Positions 3,481 to 54,449 of a stretch of 64,000 bases of DNA are shown here, in pieces. Under the pieces are notes generated by a model. That model was given only the letters and a program-made list of their open reading frames with translations. It had not been told where the DNA came from and ran no database searches. A program made the translations under genes and the position numbers. Position 1 is the first letter of the stretch. Every line of letters starts with the position of its first letter. Source of the DNA: Candidatus Omnitrophota bacterium. Its GTDB lineage: Bacteria > Omnitrophota > Omnitrophia > Omnitrophales > Aquincolibacteriaceae. The stretch spans positions 5,064 to 69,063 of the forward strand of contig JACPXM010000022.1 in NCBI GenBank assembly GCA_016196545.1, given 5' to 3'.

Positions 3481-3531
3481 AAAAAGGGGACAGGCATCTG
3501 AAACAATGAAGTAAGATGCCTGTCCCCTTTT
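3481..3531 (-). terminator. Rho-independent terminator downstream of glnA
   Basis: 13-bp GC-rich stem GGGGACAGGCATC (3486-3498) / GATGCCTGTCCCC (3515-3527). A5 on the left gives a U-tract after the hairpin on the minus strand, about 26 nt past the glnA stop. T4 on the right makes it look bidirectional. Confidence 0.8.
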
Positions 3532-24778: not shown

Positions 24779-24849
24779 TGCCCGATGGTGAAATGGTATC
24801 ACACCGCCCTTTGGAGGCGAGGTTCCTGGTTCGAGTCCAGGTCGGGCAG
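24779..24849 (+). tRNA. tRNA-Gln (anticodon UUG)
   Basis: Hand-folded cloverleaf. 7-bp acceptor TGCCCGA/TCGGGCA with U1-A72 and G73 as in bacterial tRNA-Gln. D stem GTGA/TCAC, anticodon loop CTTTGGA, T arm CCTGG-TTCGAGT-CCAGG. CCA is not encoded. Confidence 0.85.
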
Positions 24850-24870
24850 TTTCCCTCTTGGGAAACTACT

Positions 24871-24905
24871 GCACCGGGAAAGTTTAAGGAAAACTTTCCC
24901 GGTGC
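24871..24905. terminator. 15-bp perfect hairpin between convergent tRNA-Gln and ispE
   Basis: GCACCGGGAAAGTTT-aagga-AAACTTTCCCGGTGC. No clear U-tract on either strand. A smaller GTTTCCC/GGGAAAC hairpin lies at 24849-24866. Confidence 0.5.
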
Positions 24906-24942
24906 TGCAGCGTAATCTTACAAAACTCCGCTCAAATGCATC

Positions 24943-27789: not shown

Positions 27790-28089
27790 CTGCGGTTGGG
27801 TTTCCTAACATTCCTTCTATTCCTTTTTTTAATGTAACAAACCTAAAAATGCCCTCTTATCAATTTCTTCCAATTCATAGCATTTCCGAGAAGGCCTCAA
27901 TTTTTGGGATCAGCGGGTTTCAGAACTGATTTTCAACCTTCAAAATCTATTTTAAAGACTCAGCGCTAGCACGCGTTTTCTCAGGGTATTGCAGATCGCA
28001 TACTCCACAGGTATGTTTCAGTACAAGAAGGGAAAGAAACGAGAACTAAAATCAAGGAATCTACGAAAAGATAAAAAAAAGGATAAAAA

Positions 28090-28296
28090 ATGAATCCTAT
28101 GGACGGAAGTATCGGAAACGAGAAAAAGGAAATATTAACGCCCCGGGAAATCAGCAAACTGCTGTCCATTCCACTTTCCACGGTTTATAAACTGACGGCC
28201 CAGGGAAAATTCAAGGCAACCAAAGTCGGAAAACACCTTCTGCCGTCGGACAGCTTTTCTGCGCCTTTATTTTTATCCTCTATTTTATCTACCTGA
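28090..28296 (+). CDS. Small helix-turn-helix protein, excisionase/MerR-like HTH with atypical C-terminus
   Basis: 68-aa ORF. LTPREISKLLSIPLSTVYKLTAQGKFKATKVGKH resembles the excisionase-family HTH (..STVYRL..G.L.A.KVGR.). The sequence after KVGKH departs from the usual WRF motif. Located in an AT-rich, otherwise non-coding gap. Confidence 0.45.
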   Translation: MNPMDGSIGNEKKEILTPREISKLLSIPLSTVYKLTAQGKFKATKVGKHLLPSDSFSAPLFLSSILST

Positions 28297-28333
28297 CCCG
28301 CTAAGGCCGACATCTTCCCACGACATAATAACA

Positions 28334-28416
28334 ATTGAAGTTGGGGTTTTTCAATTTCAAGGGTCGTCGTGTACAGTACCGCGAACCCCTAAAATTTAAA
28401 ATGACGCGGTACTAGG
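28334..28416 (+). repeat. Double-hairpin repeat element, copy A
   Basis: 28373-28416 is 100% identical (44 nt) to the reverse complement of 52752-52795. The hairpin at 28334-28360 is about 85% identical to the reverse complement of 52801-52826. The CTAG at its 3' end contains the stop codon of the MgtC-like gene on the other strand. Confidence 0.85.
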
Positions 28417-28861
28417 CGTCGTGGCCGCCGAAGAGACGATCAATTTTCGAGAAAAGAATCAAAATCACCAGGGCAAGAAAGGTCGAAAGAACGGCGGGTT
28501 TATATTGCCCTAGCCCGCACGCAAGGCCAATACCGGCCACGGTCCAAATCCCTGCGGCGGTTGTCAGTCCTTTGATTTCCCGAGGGTCGCGAATAATGGC
28601 CCCGGCTCCGAGAAATCCGATTCCGCTCACCACCTGCGCGGCAATACGCGAAGGATCCACCGTCGCCACGGCCCGGTAAATTTCAAAAACTTCAATCGAG
28701 ACAACCATGATTAAGGCCGAGCCTAGCGATACCATTGCGTAGGTCCGCACCCCGGCTTCCTTGCGCTGCCACTCGCGCTCAAAACCAATCAGTCCTCCGA
28801 GAAAAGTTGCCGCAATTAATCGAAGCGTAATGTCAAAATCATTCTGGGTGAATTGAAACAT
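28412..28861 (-). CDS. MgtC/SapB family membrane protein
   Basis: 149-aa ORF with the MgtC N-terminal domain pattern (..LRLIAATFLGGLIGFEREWQRKEAGVRTYAMVSLGSAL..). Confidence 0.85.
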   Translation of the reverse strand: MFQFTQNDFDITLRLIAATFLGGLIGFEREWQRKEAGVRTYAMVSLGSALIMVVSIEVFEIYRAVATVDPSRIAAQVVSGIGFLGAGAIIRDPREIKGLTTAAGIWTVAGIGLACGLGQYKPAVLSTFLALVILILFSKIDRLFGGHDA

Positions 28862-34786: not shown

Positions 34787-34839
34787 CAAAACTTACCGGT
34801 TCCAGGTTGCCGCCGGCAACCTGGAACCGGTAAGTTTTG
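34787..34839 (-). terminator. Long near-perfect palindrome / terminator immediately after rsmA
   Basis: CAAAACTTACCGGTTCCAGGTTGCCG-C-CGGCAACCTGGAACCGGTAAGTTTTG forms an approximately 24-26 bp stem. It starts at the base after the rsmA stop, and the 3' arm ends in TTTTG on the minus strand. Confidence 0.7.
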
Positions 34840-35688
34840 TTAGTTTAAAGCTTCGGCGAGGGCCATAAAATCTTTTAAAAGCAGCTCCTCTGCCCTGACT
34901 TTCGAATCAAATCCCAAAGACACAATCCTCTTTTCAAGATTGCTTCTATCCTGTTTAATTTTGGGCCAGCGGGAAAGCAGATGAAGCAGCGTTTTCCGGC
35001 GCTGGCTGAAAGCAACCTTGATTAAATCAAAAAGAAATTCCTCCTCTTTTTTCGAAAATCCCGAAGGCCTCGCCCTGAATTTAAGCACCAGGACCGTCGA
35101 ATCCACGTCCGGCTCAGGCGCAAAACAACGCCGTGAAATATCAAAGGCGTGGACGATTTCTGCGCTGTAGCGGAGACCCAACGTGAGACGGCCATAATCT
35201 TTAGAGCCGGGTGTGGCCAGAAGGCGCTTTGCCACTTCTTTTTGCATCGTAAGGACCCCCCGCTCAATCAGGGACCTGCTTTCTGTAAGATAAAATAAAA
35301 TCGGACTCGTTAAATAATAAGGGAGATTGCTGAGGACCTTGACCTGGCCGCCTTTTTTAACGCCTCGGGCCCATTGTCTAAAATCAAAATCTAAAATATC
35401 CCCGTGAATCAAATGGATTGTCTTTTTTGCCTCCTCACCGAGTTCCTCTTCAAGAAAACGAATCATTCGTTGATCGCGTTCGATCGCAGTCAATTGAAAT
35501 CCCCGGTTGAGGATTTCAAAACTAAGCGCTCCCAAACCGGGCCCGATTTCAAGCAGCCTGTCGGATTCCTCCAGCTCCAGCAAATCTACGATTTTGCGCT
35601 GAATATTGGGGTCGATCAAAAAATTCTGCCCAAGGGATTTTCGCAGTGAAAGATTGTGCCGTTTTAGAATTTCAATTTGCGTGGGCAT
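34840..35688 (-). CDS. rsmA: 16S rRNA (adenine1518/1519-N6)-dimethyltransferase
   Basis: 282-aa ORF, ..LGQNFLIDPNI.., SAM-binding motif ..LEIGPGLGALS... Confidence 0.92.
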   Translation of the reverse strand: MPTQIEILKRHNLSLRKSLGQNFLIDPNIQRKIVDLLELEESDRLLEIGPGLGALSFEILNRGFQLTAIERDQRMIRFLEEELGEEAKKTIHLIHGDILDFDFRQWARGVKKGGQVKVLSNLPYYLTSPILFYLTESRSLIERGVLTMQKEVAKRLLATPGSKDYGRLTLGLRYSAEIVHAFDISRRCFAPEPDVDSTVLVLKFRARPSGFSKKEEEFLFDLIKVAFSQRRKTLLHLLSRWPKIKQDRSNLEKRIVSLGFDSKVRAEELLLKDFMALAEALN

Positions 35689-37716: not shown

Positions 37717-37761
37717 CCCCCACAGCCAGTGTGTAAAAGCTTTTTCACACCGGCTGTGGGG
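37717..37761 (-). terminator. Hairpin just downstream of mfd
   Basis: CCCCACAGCC-a-GTGTG (37717-37733) pairs with CACAC-c-GGCTGTGGGG (37746-37761). It lies 6 nt after the mfd stop and has no U-tract. Confidence 0.45.
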
Positions 37762-51852: not shown

Positions 51853-52734
51853 TTAATTCTCCGACTCGAATTCCTGCTTTTTTTCAGCTTTGGATTCAAT
51901 TTTTGATTCACTCGGCGAAGCGGGCTCTTGCCCTGATTTAATTTCCTCCGCAGGGACCCGTTTTTTAGCCTTTGAAACTAATTTCTTTGGCGTCGACGGA
52001 GCGCCCGCCTGACCCGTCTCTGACGCTTCAGATTTTTCCGCAACCTCAGTTTGTTCCTCCTGCCCGAATCGCTGAATATGGGCAAGACGCTGGGCCGCCT
52101 CTTCCTTTTTCACCAGGATGTCGCCTTTATAAATCCATACTTTGCAGCCAATCGTACCGTAAGTGGTAAATGCCTCGGCAAAACCGTAATCAATATCCGC
52201 GCGAAACGTGCTCAGCGGAACCTTTCCTTCATGATATTTTTCATCCCGCGCGATTTCAGCACCGCCCAGACGCCCTTTGCAAAGAACTTTGATACCAAGC
52301 GCTCCCTTCGACATAGCCAGTTGGACAGATTTTTTCATTGCACGGCGAAAACCCACACGCTTTTCAAGCTGCATGGCGATATTTTCCGCCACAAGCTGAC
52401 CGTCTGTTTGGGGGGATTTCACTTCTTTAATATCCACAAAGAGCTCATCTTGCGTCAAGGCACCCAATTCTTCTTTAATCTTGTCGATTTCCTGTCCGCG
52501 ACGGCCGATAATCACACCTGGACGGGCCGTATGAATTCTCACGCGCACGCGGCCGCTGGAACGTTCAATCTCAACATTTGAAATTCCAGCAAAGGCCAGC
52601 TTCTTTTTCAAAAATTTTCGCAGCTTCAAGTCTTCGTGAAGAAACTGACTGAAATTTTTCCGCGCAAACCAGCGTGCCTTCCATGGCTTGATATACCCTA
52701 ATCTTAATCCGTAAGGATGTGCTTTTTGACCCAC
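51853..52734 (-). CDS. rpsC: 30S ribosomal protein S3 with ~80-aa acidic/lysine-rich C-terminal tail
   Basis: GTG start at 52734 preceded by AAGGAGG (52740-52746). (M)[13 protein letters not shown].., with KH and S3-C domains. Confidence 0.94.
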
Positions 52735-52751
52735 CCAATCCTCCTTAAACT

Positions 52752-52843
52752 CCTAGTACCGCGTCATTTTAAATTTTAGGGGTTCGCGGTACTGTGCAGA
52801 TTGAAATTGAAACCCCTAATTTCAATCTTGACGACGCACTAGG
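52752..52843 (-). repeat. Double-hairpin repeat element, copy B, in the rplV-rpsC spacer
   Basis: Its reverse complement matches copy A (44/44 nt core 52752-52795; hairpin 52801-52826 about 85%). It is bounded by CCTAGT (52752-52757) and ACTAGG (52838-52843). The latter contains the rplV TAG stop. Confidence 0.85.
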
Positions 52844-53324
52844 CTTTCTGCTTGATTGTCTTTTTCTTCTTTTGTTCTGCGGCTTTATCCAAGCTTGCCG
52901 CATCGCTTTGAGGCGTCCCAAACGTTTTCCACTCTTTCGTACCTTCTTTGAGGGTGATTGAAAGATGTGTTGTTCTTTTAATAATGCGATCCGCACGGCC
53001 CATGGAGCGGGACATAAAGCGCTTCATCACTGTCCCTCCATCCGCGCGAACCTCTGAAACATAAAGACGATTTTCATTCATGCCTAGCACCTTGGCATTG
53101 GCAACCGCAGATTTGAGGAGTTTTTCAGTCATCCGAGCGGCCTTTTTCTTTACCGTCATCAAAATCGGAAAGGCCTTGACAATTGGCTCGTGACGAATCG
53201 TGTCGATCACAAGCCGCATCTTGCGCGGCGAAATCTTAAGGAATTTGACGCGTGCAAAGGCCTTTCGGGATTCCACCAACGGATTGAGAGGTTCCGATTT
53301 TTGAGTTTGTTTGGTTTCTTTCAT
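52839..53324 (-). CDS. rplV: 50S ribosomal protein L22 (N- and C-terminal extensions)
   Basis: L22 core (..ISPRKMRLVIDTIRHEPI..). I prefer ATG at 53324 (MKETKQ..). The track start at 53348 is a TTG inside rpsS. Confidence 0.9.
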   Translation of the reverse strand: MKETKQTQKSEPLNPLVESRKAFARVKFLKISPRKMRLVIDTIRHEPIVKAFPILMTVKKKAARMTEKLLKSAVANAKVLGMNENRLYVSEVRADGGTVMKRFMSRSMGRADRIIKRTTHLSITLKEGTKEWKTFGTPQSDAASLDKAAEQKKKKTIKQKA

Positions 53325-53325
53325 T

Positions 53326-53625
53326 TTAAGCTTTCGCCGCCGTTGCAAGGGCCTTGGCCTTGTCCTGCGAAGTACTATGCTTTTTAAAGGTTCGCGTCGG
53401 TGAAAATTCCCCGAGTTTATGACCCACCATATTTTCTGTCACAAAAACCTTATGAAAAATTTTCCCGTTGTGCACCTCAAACGTCACGCCCACAAATTCA
53501 GGGACAATGGTAGAACGCCGAGACCATGTCTTGATCGGCCGGCGGTCCTTTCTTTGAACAGCAACCTTAACCTTCTTTGCAAGCTTCTCATCCAGATAAA
53601 CACCTTTTTTCGAGGAGCGACTCAT
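53326..53625 (-). CDS. rpsS: 30S ribosomal protein S19
   Basis: 99-aa [18 protein letters not shown].., ..[16 protein letters not shown]... Confidence 0.95.
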
Positions 53626-54449
53626 TTTCTTCTATCCTTCACAATATATTTGTTAGTCCATTTATGGCGCTGGCGAGTTCGAAGACCCTTGGCCTTCTGC
53701 CCCCACGGACTTTGAGGATGATTACCGCCTTTTGATTTGCCCTCACCCCCGCCCATCGGATGGTCCACAGGATTTCGAACCACGCCGCGGCTACACGGGC
53801 GAATCCCAAGCCAGCGCGAGCGCCCAGCCTTTCCAAGGGCAACGTTTTCATGTTCAATATTTGAACATTGTCCAATCGTGGCATAAGCCCCGATGGGAAT
53901 CATTCTGACTTCCCCGGAAGGAAGTTTAAGATGCGCATAGTCATTTTCTTTAGAGAGGATTTGCGCCACGCCTCCCGCAGAACGGACCAATTTTCCGCCC
54001 GTCCCTGGGATGAGTTCAACATTGTGAACCGGTGTTCCTTCGGGAATGGCTTTAAGCGGAAGGTGATTCCCTACCCTCACCTCGGCCGTTTCTCCGCTCA
54101 TCACGGAGTCTCCGACTTTGAGGCCGTCCGGGCAAAGGATATAACTTTTAAGACCATCCTGATATTCAATCAGCGAAATCCGCGTACCCCGATTGGGATC
54201 GTATTCAACCGTCAGCACTTTTCCGGGAATACCAAAATGATTGCGGCGAAAATCAATCATTCGGTAACGTCTTTTGTGACCCCCGCCCCGATGCCGTGAG
54301 GTAATATGGCCGTTCGCATTTCTCCCGCCTGAACTCCGGACCGCTTCCGTGAGCGGCTTATAGGGTTTTTTGGTCGTAAGCTCCGCGAAATCCGAAACGC
54401 TTCCAAAGCGTCGGGTCGGAGTTGTGGGTTTAAATTTTACAAGCGGCAT
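53622..54449 (-). CDS. rplB: 50S ribosomal protein L2
   Basis: ATG at 54449 ([15 protein letters not shown]..) preceded by GAGGAG. The track start at 54491 overlaps rplW. Confidence 0.95.

Follow-up and report, generated by a model that had tools for sequence, protein, structure and literature searches.

In a 64,000-nt stretch of a Candidatus Omnitrophota genome (positions 5,064 to 69,063 of contig JACPXM010000022.1, assembly GCA_016196545.1; hereafter the window), a 92-nt imperfect palindrome lies between the ribosomal protein genes rplV and rpsC. This element, repeat copy B (52752..52843, minus strand), is an insertion that is absent from the same junction in relatives, and a variant or partial second copy, copy A, adjoins an unrelated gene in the same window. 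Taken as a whole, the evidence makes it probable that the element is a dispersed repeat resembling the miniature inverted-repeat transposable elements known as MITEs, or possibly the repetitive extragenic palindromes (REPs), and that it inserted at a CTAG, or at the TA in its centre, on the rplV stop codon and was close to harmless there.

Results

An insertion between rplV and rpsC

The S10-type cluster (str-S10-spc) spans ~59441 down to ~48127 of the window, in which nearly all genes are on the minus strand. Within this cluster, rplV (ribosomal protein L22; 52839..53348, minus strand; Pfam PF00237 Ribosomal_L22, E 2.8e-31) is followed by rpsC (ribosomal protein S3; 51853..52734, minus strand; Pfam KH_2 and Ribosomal_S3_C), which begins with a GTG at 52734 and whose N-terminus, MGQKAHPYG, aligns with the S3 of relatives. 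The two genes are separated by 104 nt (52735-52838), which is the sole outlier (>25 nt) among the rpsL-to-rplR junctions in the window, where spacing otherwise runs from -32 to +25 nt. We compared this junction with six rplV-rpsC loci of related Omnitrophota, in which S3 shows 79-91% identity across the aligned part, and their spacers measure 30 nt (L003), 14 nt (L004), 10 nt (L005), 14 nt (L006), 9 nt (L007) and 10 nt (an ENA contig, from gene coordinates alone). An earlier interpretation made from the letters of the DNA, here called the sequence-only reading, had regarded the spacer as abnormal, and 104 nt against 9-30 nt in the six relatives bears this out; no equally long, homologous spacer that would make it ancestral was found among them. 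Neither blastn-short nor an nhmmer profile detected the element in the relatives' fetched rplV-rpsC loci, and the short spacers in all six relatives thus identify copy B as a lineage-specific insertion.

On the minus strand the junction reads ...AAA GCC TAG TGCGTCGTCAAGATTGAAATTAGGGGTTTCAATTTCAATCTGCACAGTACCGCGAACCCCTAAAATTTAAAATGACGCGGTACTAGG AGTTT AAGGAGG ATTGG GTG GGT CAA AAA..., and its layout agrees in every coordinate and spacing with that described in the sequence-only reading. The rplV stop TAG (52841-52839, minus strand) is supplied by the 5' CCTAG of the element, and the 3' end of the element stops 5 nt short of the rpsC Shine-Dalgarno sequence AAGGAGG (52746-52740, minus strand), which in turn stands 5 nt ahead of the GTG. 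This Shine-Dalgarno sequence is native, as relatives have GGAG or GGAGG at the equivalent position, and it lies together with its spacing and the start codon intact just outside the element. When everything from one CTAG of copy B to the other is deleted, GCC TAG GAGTTTAAGGAGGATTGG GTG results, with an 18-nt spacer and a native-looking Shine-Dalgarno sequence. The reconstructed empty site, GCCTAGGAG, resembles its counterpart in L007, which reads TCC TAG GAGATTAAC TTG (GCC TAG GAG... against TCC TAG GAG... at the stop). The reconstructed empty site contains CCTAGG. No promoter-like site was found in the spacer and no terminator-like site on either strand between 52400 and 53200, which agrees with the placement of the element inside the operon by the sequence-only reading and leads us to reject a promoter or a terminator as its identity.

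Structure of copy B and its predicted folds

Copy B extends from CCTAG to CTAGG and consists of a long inverted repeat around a 26-nt centre. Its left arm, CCTAGTGCGTCGTCAAGATTGAAATTAGGGGTT (52811..52843, minus strand), is predicted to pair with its right arm, AACCCCTAAAATTTAAAATGACGCGGTACTAGG (52752..52784, minus strand), in the minimum-energy fold of the RNA, and the reverse complement of the right arm, CCTAGTACCGCGTCATTTTAAATTTTAGGGGTT, matches the left arm at 23/33 positions by our own count. At the very ends, the terminal repeats CCTAGTGCGTCGTCA and CCTAGTACCGCGTCA (the latter the reverse complement of the right end) agree at 11/14 positions, again by our own count and with CTAG included. 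The two CTAGs, at 52842-52839 and 52756-52753 (minus strand), form a candidate target-site duplication, of the whole tetranucleotide or of the TA inside it. Both ends read CC-TAG-T inward, so that a gene adjoining either end would stop exactly at its native position.

The element is short and lacks coding capacity: in our own translation, frames entering from either end reach a stop within 0-24 codons, with stops in all frames, and the only small open reading frame (ORF) inside is a 4-codon ATG..TAG without a Shine-Dalgarno sequence. No database protein carries either of the two 24-residue peptides that the element would encode.

As RNA, copy B is predicted to fold into one long hairpin of -32.9 to -34.0 kcal/mol (z -5.5 for the value of -32.9; 0/200 dinucleotide shuffles as good), also when the flanks are included. 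The centre contains short stretches complementary to each arm, and two alternative folds are therefore available. In the second, hairpin 1 (52798..52828, minus strand; local fold -9.0 kcal/mol) has the core stem ATTGAAAT/ATTTCAAT and a loop with GGGGTT, and hairpin 2 (52755..52793, minus strand; local fold -13.4 kcal/mol; identical in both copies) has the stem AGTACCGCG/CGCGGTACT and a 21-nt, A/T-rich loop that starts with AACCCC. This two-hairpin conformer reaches -16.6 kcal/mol as RNA, and it is the minimum for copy B under DNA parameters (-18.9, z -4.95). The sequence-only reading had proposed a double hairpin held by a loop-loop kiss between GGGGUU and AACCCC; in the predicted RNA fold these segments form the inner part of the long stem instead, and we reject the kissing-loop architecture as the main RNA fold since the long hairpin is calculated to be far more stable. 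It had also raised an influence of the element on rpsC translation, which the modelling does not indicate: the mean unpaired probability of the Shine-Dalgarno sequence is predicted to be 0.77 with the element and 0.56 at the reconstructed empty site.

An intrinsic terminator or attenuator, that is, a GC-rich hairpin with a U-tract, was likewise considered and rejected, given that no terminator-like site is present and the 3' hairpin of copy B is followed by GAGUUUAAGGAGG. Rfam returned no family at the gathering threshold, the best sub-threshold match having E 2.7, and a known RNA family was rejected on this result.

A second copy at the stop codon of an MgtC-family gene

Copy A (~28333..28416, plus strand) is 24 kb from copy B in an unrelated context, and comprises hairpin 1, hairpin 2 and the terminal CTAGG without the left arm. 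It matches the minus strand of copy B, which confirms the orientation given in the sequence-only reading, with 44 nt identical and ~80 nt alignable (blastn E ~3e-20); the inverted match between 52749-52798 and 28370-28419 covers 50 nt at 96%. Such similarity is far above chance for 64 kb. The claim that the two are the same repeat thus holds for ~80 of the 92 nt and fails for the 5' end, where the first 13-17 nt of copy B (CCTAGTGCGTCGTC...) are missing from copy A. The right arm is identical in both copies, and hairpin 1 of copy A differs by two A-to-G changes, with pairing kept as G-U, and by a 1-2 nt loop indel. Lacking the left arm, copy A is predicted to fold as two hairpins, an unexceptional structure with z -1.5.

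The right end of copy A coincides with the end of a convergent MgtC-family gene (28412..28861, minus strand), whose TAG stop (28412..28414) lies inside the terminal CTAGG. The C-terminus of this protein, GGHDA, and its length of 149 aa are native in comparison with 12 homologues, and in three relative contigs, two of which have the same sequence, the MgtC gene ends in TAA or TGA followed by unrelated sequence without the element. It follows that copy A sits exactly at the native stop position, and filled and empty orthologous sites are accordingly on record for both the rplV-rpsC and the MgtC loci. Neither relatives nor other contigs defined the left boundary of copy A: synteny downstream of MgtC is not kept in the relatives, and the helix-turn-helix (HTH) ORF and the ZIP gene had no exact-product record in the contig index.

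The linker between the hairpins of copy A carries an extra GGGTCGTCGTG, which resembles the adjacent native 3' end of the MgtC gene, GGCGTCGTGG, so that hairpin 2 is bracketed by a short direct repeat; the same extra segment also pairs with CACGAC in the left flank (28316-28425 region). This arrangement may go back to nested or partial elements or to a conversion tract, or it may be a matter of chance within a CGT-rich motif. The CCACGAC/GTCGTGG inverted repeat around copy A was rejected as a pair of element ends because its right half is native MgtC coding sequence. Next to copy A is a gene-poor gap of 622 nt (27790-28411) that may be an old mobile-element or integration scar. The ORF at 28090-28296 in this gap (plus strand, 68 aa) matches only positions 2-36 of the 51-position HTH_17 (excisionase-type) profile and is therefore probably a truncated remnant.

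Stop codons and CTAG sites

Both readable copies provide the TAG of the gene that runs into them, copy B with its left end for rplV and copy A with its right end for MgtC, and in the sense of each gene the junction reads GCC TAG T. Of the three stop codons, the genes of the window use TAG least often (8 of 66). CTAG is depleted ~9-fold relative to base composition (27 observed, 248 expected), yet its frequency is in line with that of its trinucleotides. Of the 27 sites, three are part of copies A and B; only two, both at element ends, fall on a stop codon, and 10 intergenic CTAGs are unoccupied. Such a distribution would be expected if the element inserts at CTAG, or at the TA within a stop codon, and disruptive insertions are then removed by selection. 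A genuine preference of the element for stop codons may be at work as well, two cases being too few to tell.

A probable further copy in the sample, and searches of sequence collections

Two copies were read directly in the 64 kb. Further information comes from Logan contigs, which derive from two sequencing runs of one study. Three of them end inside the element: L001, which covers the rpsC side, starts exactly 30 nt ahead of the base that follows CTAGG; L012, with the S19 gene and rplV, ends with the 31-mer GCCTAGTGCGTCGTCAAGATTGAAATTAGGG, which starts one base outside CCTAG; and L013, from the side of copy A that holds MgtC, stops 29 nt past GCC. We simulated a k=31 graph from the window alone and compared it with these contig ends. 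The simulation reproduces the end of L001 exactly, and on the rplV side it predicts a contig that covers the first 80 nt of the element, since copy A is different in that part. L012 stops 55 nt sooner, at the CCTAG boundary, which points to another sequence in the sample that has the left arm of copy B in a different context. The simplest explanation is at least one further copy in the sample, indicated indirectly by this break. The break is also in favour of a unit that truly runs from CCTAG to CTAGG, of which copy A would be a variant or an incomplete form.

The first 24 positions of L012 (SRR12113416; window ~53790-53813, in rplB) differ wholly from the window, and its other 976 nt are identical; this suggests that the graph joined another strain or species inside the conserved rplB.

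Searches for relatives of the element covered several collections. Beyond copies A and B, blastn-short and the two-copy nhmmer profile found nothing in the window and in ~57 kb of fetched loci, of which ~40 kb are from relatives. An exact-word scan of GTDB representative genomes gave one chance match (Flavonifractor, no hairpin partner), an exact-word search of JGI metagenome contigs with two different halves of hairpin 2 gave none, the source genome being outside both of these collections, and four patterns searched by exact word in IMG/VR gave only one chance match. Proteins that read into other copies were sought through the element-encoded peptides, and none was found. Six ORFs near the two copies contained no transposase in a Pfam scan, the other window ORFs not having been screened for transposases or for REP-associated tyrosine transposases (RAYTs). 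Nor was an insertion sequence with matching ends found in the window, the one part of the genome that was covered.

Flanking genes and other palindromes in the window

The longest ORF of rplV begins with a TTG at 53348, and the gene call on the Logan contig places the start at an ATG at 53324 and gives 161 aa, with the exact product present on L012. Upstream is the S19 gene (53326..53625), confirmed by Pfam. L22 is extended on both sides of its Pfam match (residues 32-134), and S3, 293 aa in length and 100% identical to NCBI MBI3316840.1 from a Candidatus Omnitrophota metagenome-assembled genome (MAG), has a Lys/Glu/Ser/Ala-rich C-terminal tail of ~70-80 residues past its Pfam domains (Ribosomal_S3_C ends at residue 201). 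These tails vary among relatives as well (S3 245-307 aa), and that of L22 is too variable for relatives to verify the native last codon of rplV. For the S10/spc operons of this phylum, a preprint reports that 'variability loci' defined by soft-clip pile-ups overlap them in 150 of 223 Omnitrophota chromosomes, by a mechanism that it leaves unresolved (bioRxiv 10.64898/2026.06.07.730766); small in-operon repeats are a conceivable contributor.

Strong intergenic palindromes without sequence relation to the element occur elsewhere in the window and may be terminators or other repeat families. They include a perfect palindrome of 53 nt with 26-nt arms (34787-34839) that adjoins the end of the ORF 34840..35688. 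Three others have arms of 22 nt (37718-37761), of 20 nt (24866-24910; just past a tRNA at 24779-24849) and, in a perfect match, of 18 nt (3482-3531).

Discussion

A probably tolerated insertion in an essential operon

Our data suggest a model whereby copy B inserted, in the lineage leading to this Omnitrophota genome, at a CTAG or TA that overlapped the stop codon of rplV. That the element was mobile, presumably through a transposase acting in trans, we infer from its terminal repeats, from the CTAG or TA at its flanks and from the sites that are empty in relatives; the CTAGs at its two ends would then be the duplicated target. Once inserted, it would be co-transcribed with the operon, and in the mRNA the two 33-nt arms would pair, with the base joining CCUAG to CUAGG and the 92 nt looped out, so that the rplV stop would come to lie a few nt from the rpsC ribosome-binding site and the Shine-Dalgarno sequence would remain single-stranded. 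Near-harmlessness would explain why copy B persists among essential genes: the TAG is regenerated by its end, which would leave L22 unchanged; it contains no terminator or promoter, and the operon would thus be read through; and the restored stop, the retention of the native ribosome-binding site and the folding of the element upon itself would together account for its tolerance. The insertion was likely nearly neutral, with the Shine-Dalgarno sequence predicted to be accessible, and near-neutrality would explain its survival between two essential genes. Effects on expression, such as stabilization of the mRNA, RNase III-type cleavage of the long stem or slower termination at a stop codon buried in the stem, could arise as by-products. 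A selfish insertion tolerated at this spot, one of the options in the sequence-only reading, is thus the best-supported interpretation, and membership in the MITE class is partly demonstrated.

Several observations weigh against this interpretation. Only two copies were read, a third being indicated indirectly, and copy A has neither the left terminal repeat nor a recognizable target duplication, so that both features are taken from copy B; with one full copy, moreover, a CTAG belonging to the terminal repeat is indistinguishable from a duplication. Both copies adjoin a stop that follows a GCC codon, which random insertion at CTAG or TA does not obviously predict, and the 10 intergenic CTAGs of the window stand empty. 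The negative results from the GTDB, JGI and IMG/VR collections, from the peptide searches and from the Pfam scan of nearby ORFs count on the same side, as does the fact that transcription, in vivo folding and neutrality of the element are predictions.

Alternative explanations

If the position of both copies on stop codons reflects targeting, the element would be a stop-codon-seeking palindrome suited to very compact genomes and invisible in operons, a possibility that we regard as unlikely; its hairpin would loop the insertion out and so preserve translational coupling, and might double as an RNase III or stability site. It is rather improbable that the element is a functional or domesticated RNA of the S10 operon, whose hairpin or conformer switch would set the L22:S3 ratio through termination-reinitiation coupling, by shielding the rpsC-distal mRNA once it has been cleaved, or as a site of RNase III processing. 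The very stable predicted fold with two alternative conformers, the burial of the rplV stop in the basal stem, which ends 5 nt from the Shine-Dalgarno sequence, and the retention of pairing in hairpin 1 between the copies (A-U to G-U) are all in keeping with such a role; RNase III binds Correia elements and either cleaves or protects them (PMC2649163), and ribosomes can stall at REPs beside stop codons (PMC12306157). However, the other copy lies between convergent, unrelated genes, Rfam offers no match, the Shine-Dalgarno sequence is predicted to be as accessible with the element as without it or more so, and absence from the six relatives shows that the element is not a conserved feature of the operon; covariation provides no evidence either, because only two copies are known. 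An autoregulatory leader of the ribosomal protein type was rejected on the lack of an Rfam match, the absence from six relatives and the second copy outside any ribosomal protein operon.

We also consider it quite doubtful that the element is a REP/REPIN-type palindrome, spread as single-stranded DNA (ssDNA) hairpins by a RAYT or arisen de novo, rather than a MITE moved by a DDE transposase. Two hairpins are predicted for it as ssDNA (z -4.95), its two related arms stand in inverted order as they do in a REP dimer or REPIN, and a CGTC stands beside hairpin 1 in both copies, with an 8-bp stem starting with AT as in the CGTC-tagged REPs; repeats of this type are mostly located downstream of coding regions (PMC3733652). 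Against this, the loops are 11 and 21 nt rather than the 4-5 nt of CGTC REPs, the CGTC of copy B is separated from the stem by 6 nt and that of copy A lies at the other side of its hairpin, no CCA tail or GTAG head is present, and no RAYT gene was identified in the window, though its ORFs were not screened for RAYTs. The published description of a REP palindrome (20-40 bp, a stem of 8-9 bp, a loop of 4-5 nt, a terminal GTAG or CGTC tag next to that stem, and a short tail; PMC3733652) does not fit the element, although its stems are of 8-9 bp. Much less probable is an origin without mobility, by a single ectopic recombination or gene conversion from the copy A locus or in reverse: only two copies were read directly, and their uneven divergence, identical over the right 44/44 nt and ~80% with indels on the left, does look tract-like, but the left arm of copy B is absent from copy A, so that neither is a simple copy of the other, the Logan break requires another sequence with a left arm, and both insertions are precise at stops with the flanking genes intact. 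That a repeat-induced misjoin placed the element in the operon is scarcely credible; the source is a MAG, and repeats are typical points of misassembly, but the rplV-element junction is present in L012 and the element-rpsC junction in L001, two independent Logan contigs that match the window except for the first 24 nt of L012, which are far from the junction, and the gene order across the junction is the canonical rplV-rpsC.

Interpreted as a MITE-like insertion, copy B is apparently the first small dispersed repeat described in Omnitrophota, as literature searches on the group found none, and it offers a clean comparison of filled and empty sites for a small repeat that separates two essential genes for ribosomal proteins. 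The case illustrates how a palindrome can be tolerated in a packed operon, with the stop regenerated, the ribosome-binding site untouched and the RNA predicted to fold on itself. The repeat also breaks short-read assemblies at these loci and is a possible strain marker. Confirmation of stop-codon targeting or of a regulatory effect would be needed for it to have more than modest biological importance.

Comparison with known repeat families

IS630 targets CTAG with duplication of the TA, the 4-bp duplication made by IS5 is of a YTAR target, for instance CTAG, the RUP elements of Streptococcus pneumoniae are thought to be moved by an IS630-family transposase, and Correia elements insert at TA. 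The flanks of copy B (C-TA-G or CTAG) are compatible with insertion of the IS630/Tc1-mariner or IS5 type and give a lead towards either mechanism; an insertion sequence (IS) of the IS630/Tc1, IS5 or PIF-like kind that shared the element ends would start with (TA)GTGCGTCGTCA or GTACCGCGTCA.

Among palindromic repeats, the REP/REPIN families resemble the element in being palindromic, extragenic, mostly 3' of genes and arranged as inverted dimers, as well as in the CGTC near hairpin 1 (PMC3733652), whereas loop sizes, tag position and tail do not fit and the CTAG flanks look like a target duplication, which REPs lack. The mycobacterial interspersed repetitive units, or MIRUs (Supply et al. 1997, summarized in PMC3184786), lie between the genes of a polycistron with ends that overlap the neighbours and with tetranucleotide direct repeats. 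Like the element, they are described there as repeats of 40-100 bp in polycistronic operons, with gene-overlapping ends and absent from the same site in relatives (PMC3184786), but they hold small ORFs that bridge a stop and a start and are often in tandem, and the element is a single unit that overlaps a stop only. Correia elements (CREE/NEMIS) of Neisseria are similar in size (~100 nt), inverted-repeat ends, location next to or between genes and formation of a long RNA hairpin (PMC2649163); the element differs from them in having no sequence similarity, no promoter-like site in the spacer and no evidence for binding of integration host factor (IHF) or promoter creation.

The closest parallel is with bacterial MITEs, which are characterized by terminal inverted repeats, flanking direct repeats, the lack of a transposase, a long stable stem-loop, and filled and empty sites (PMC3184786). 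Closest to the element in its behaviour is Chunjie of Geobacter uraniireducens (PMC10969869, PMC3184786), and MITEs of this kind reside in operons without disrupting them and form families with many partial copies (PMC10969869). Compared with these, the element is among the smallest in size with its 92 nt, a cognate IS is not known, both ends are present in one copy only, and the family, so far seen only in this Omnitrophota MAG and its sample, had not been described. Like Chunjie and other MITEs, copy B is short and non-coding, with candidate terminal inverted repeats, short flanking direct repeats that may be a target duplication and a very stable predicted stem-loop, and the element shares with them filled and empty sites, insertion into an operon without breaking it, and the coexistence of full and partial copies.

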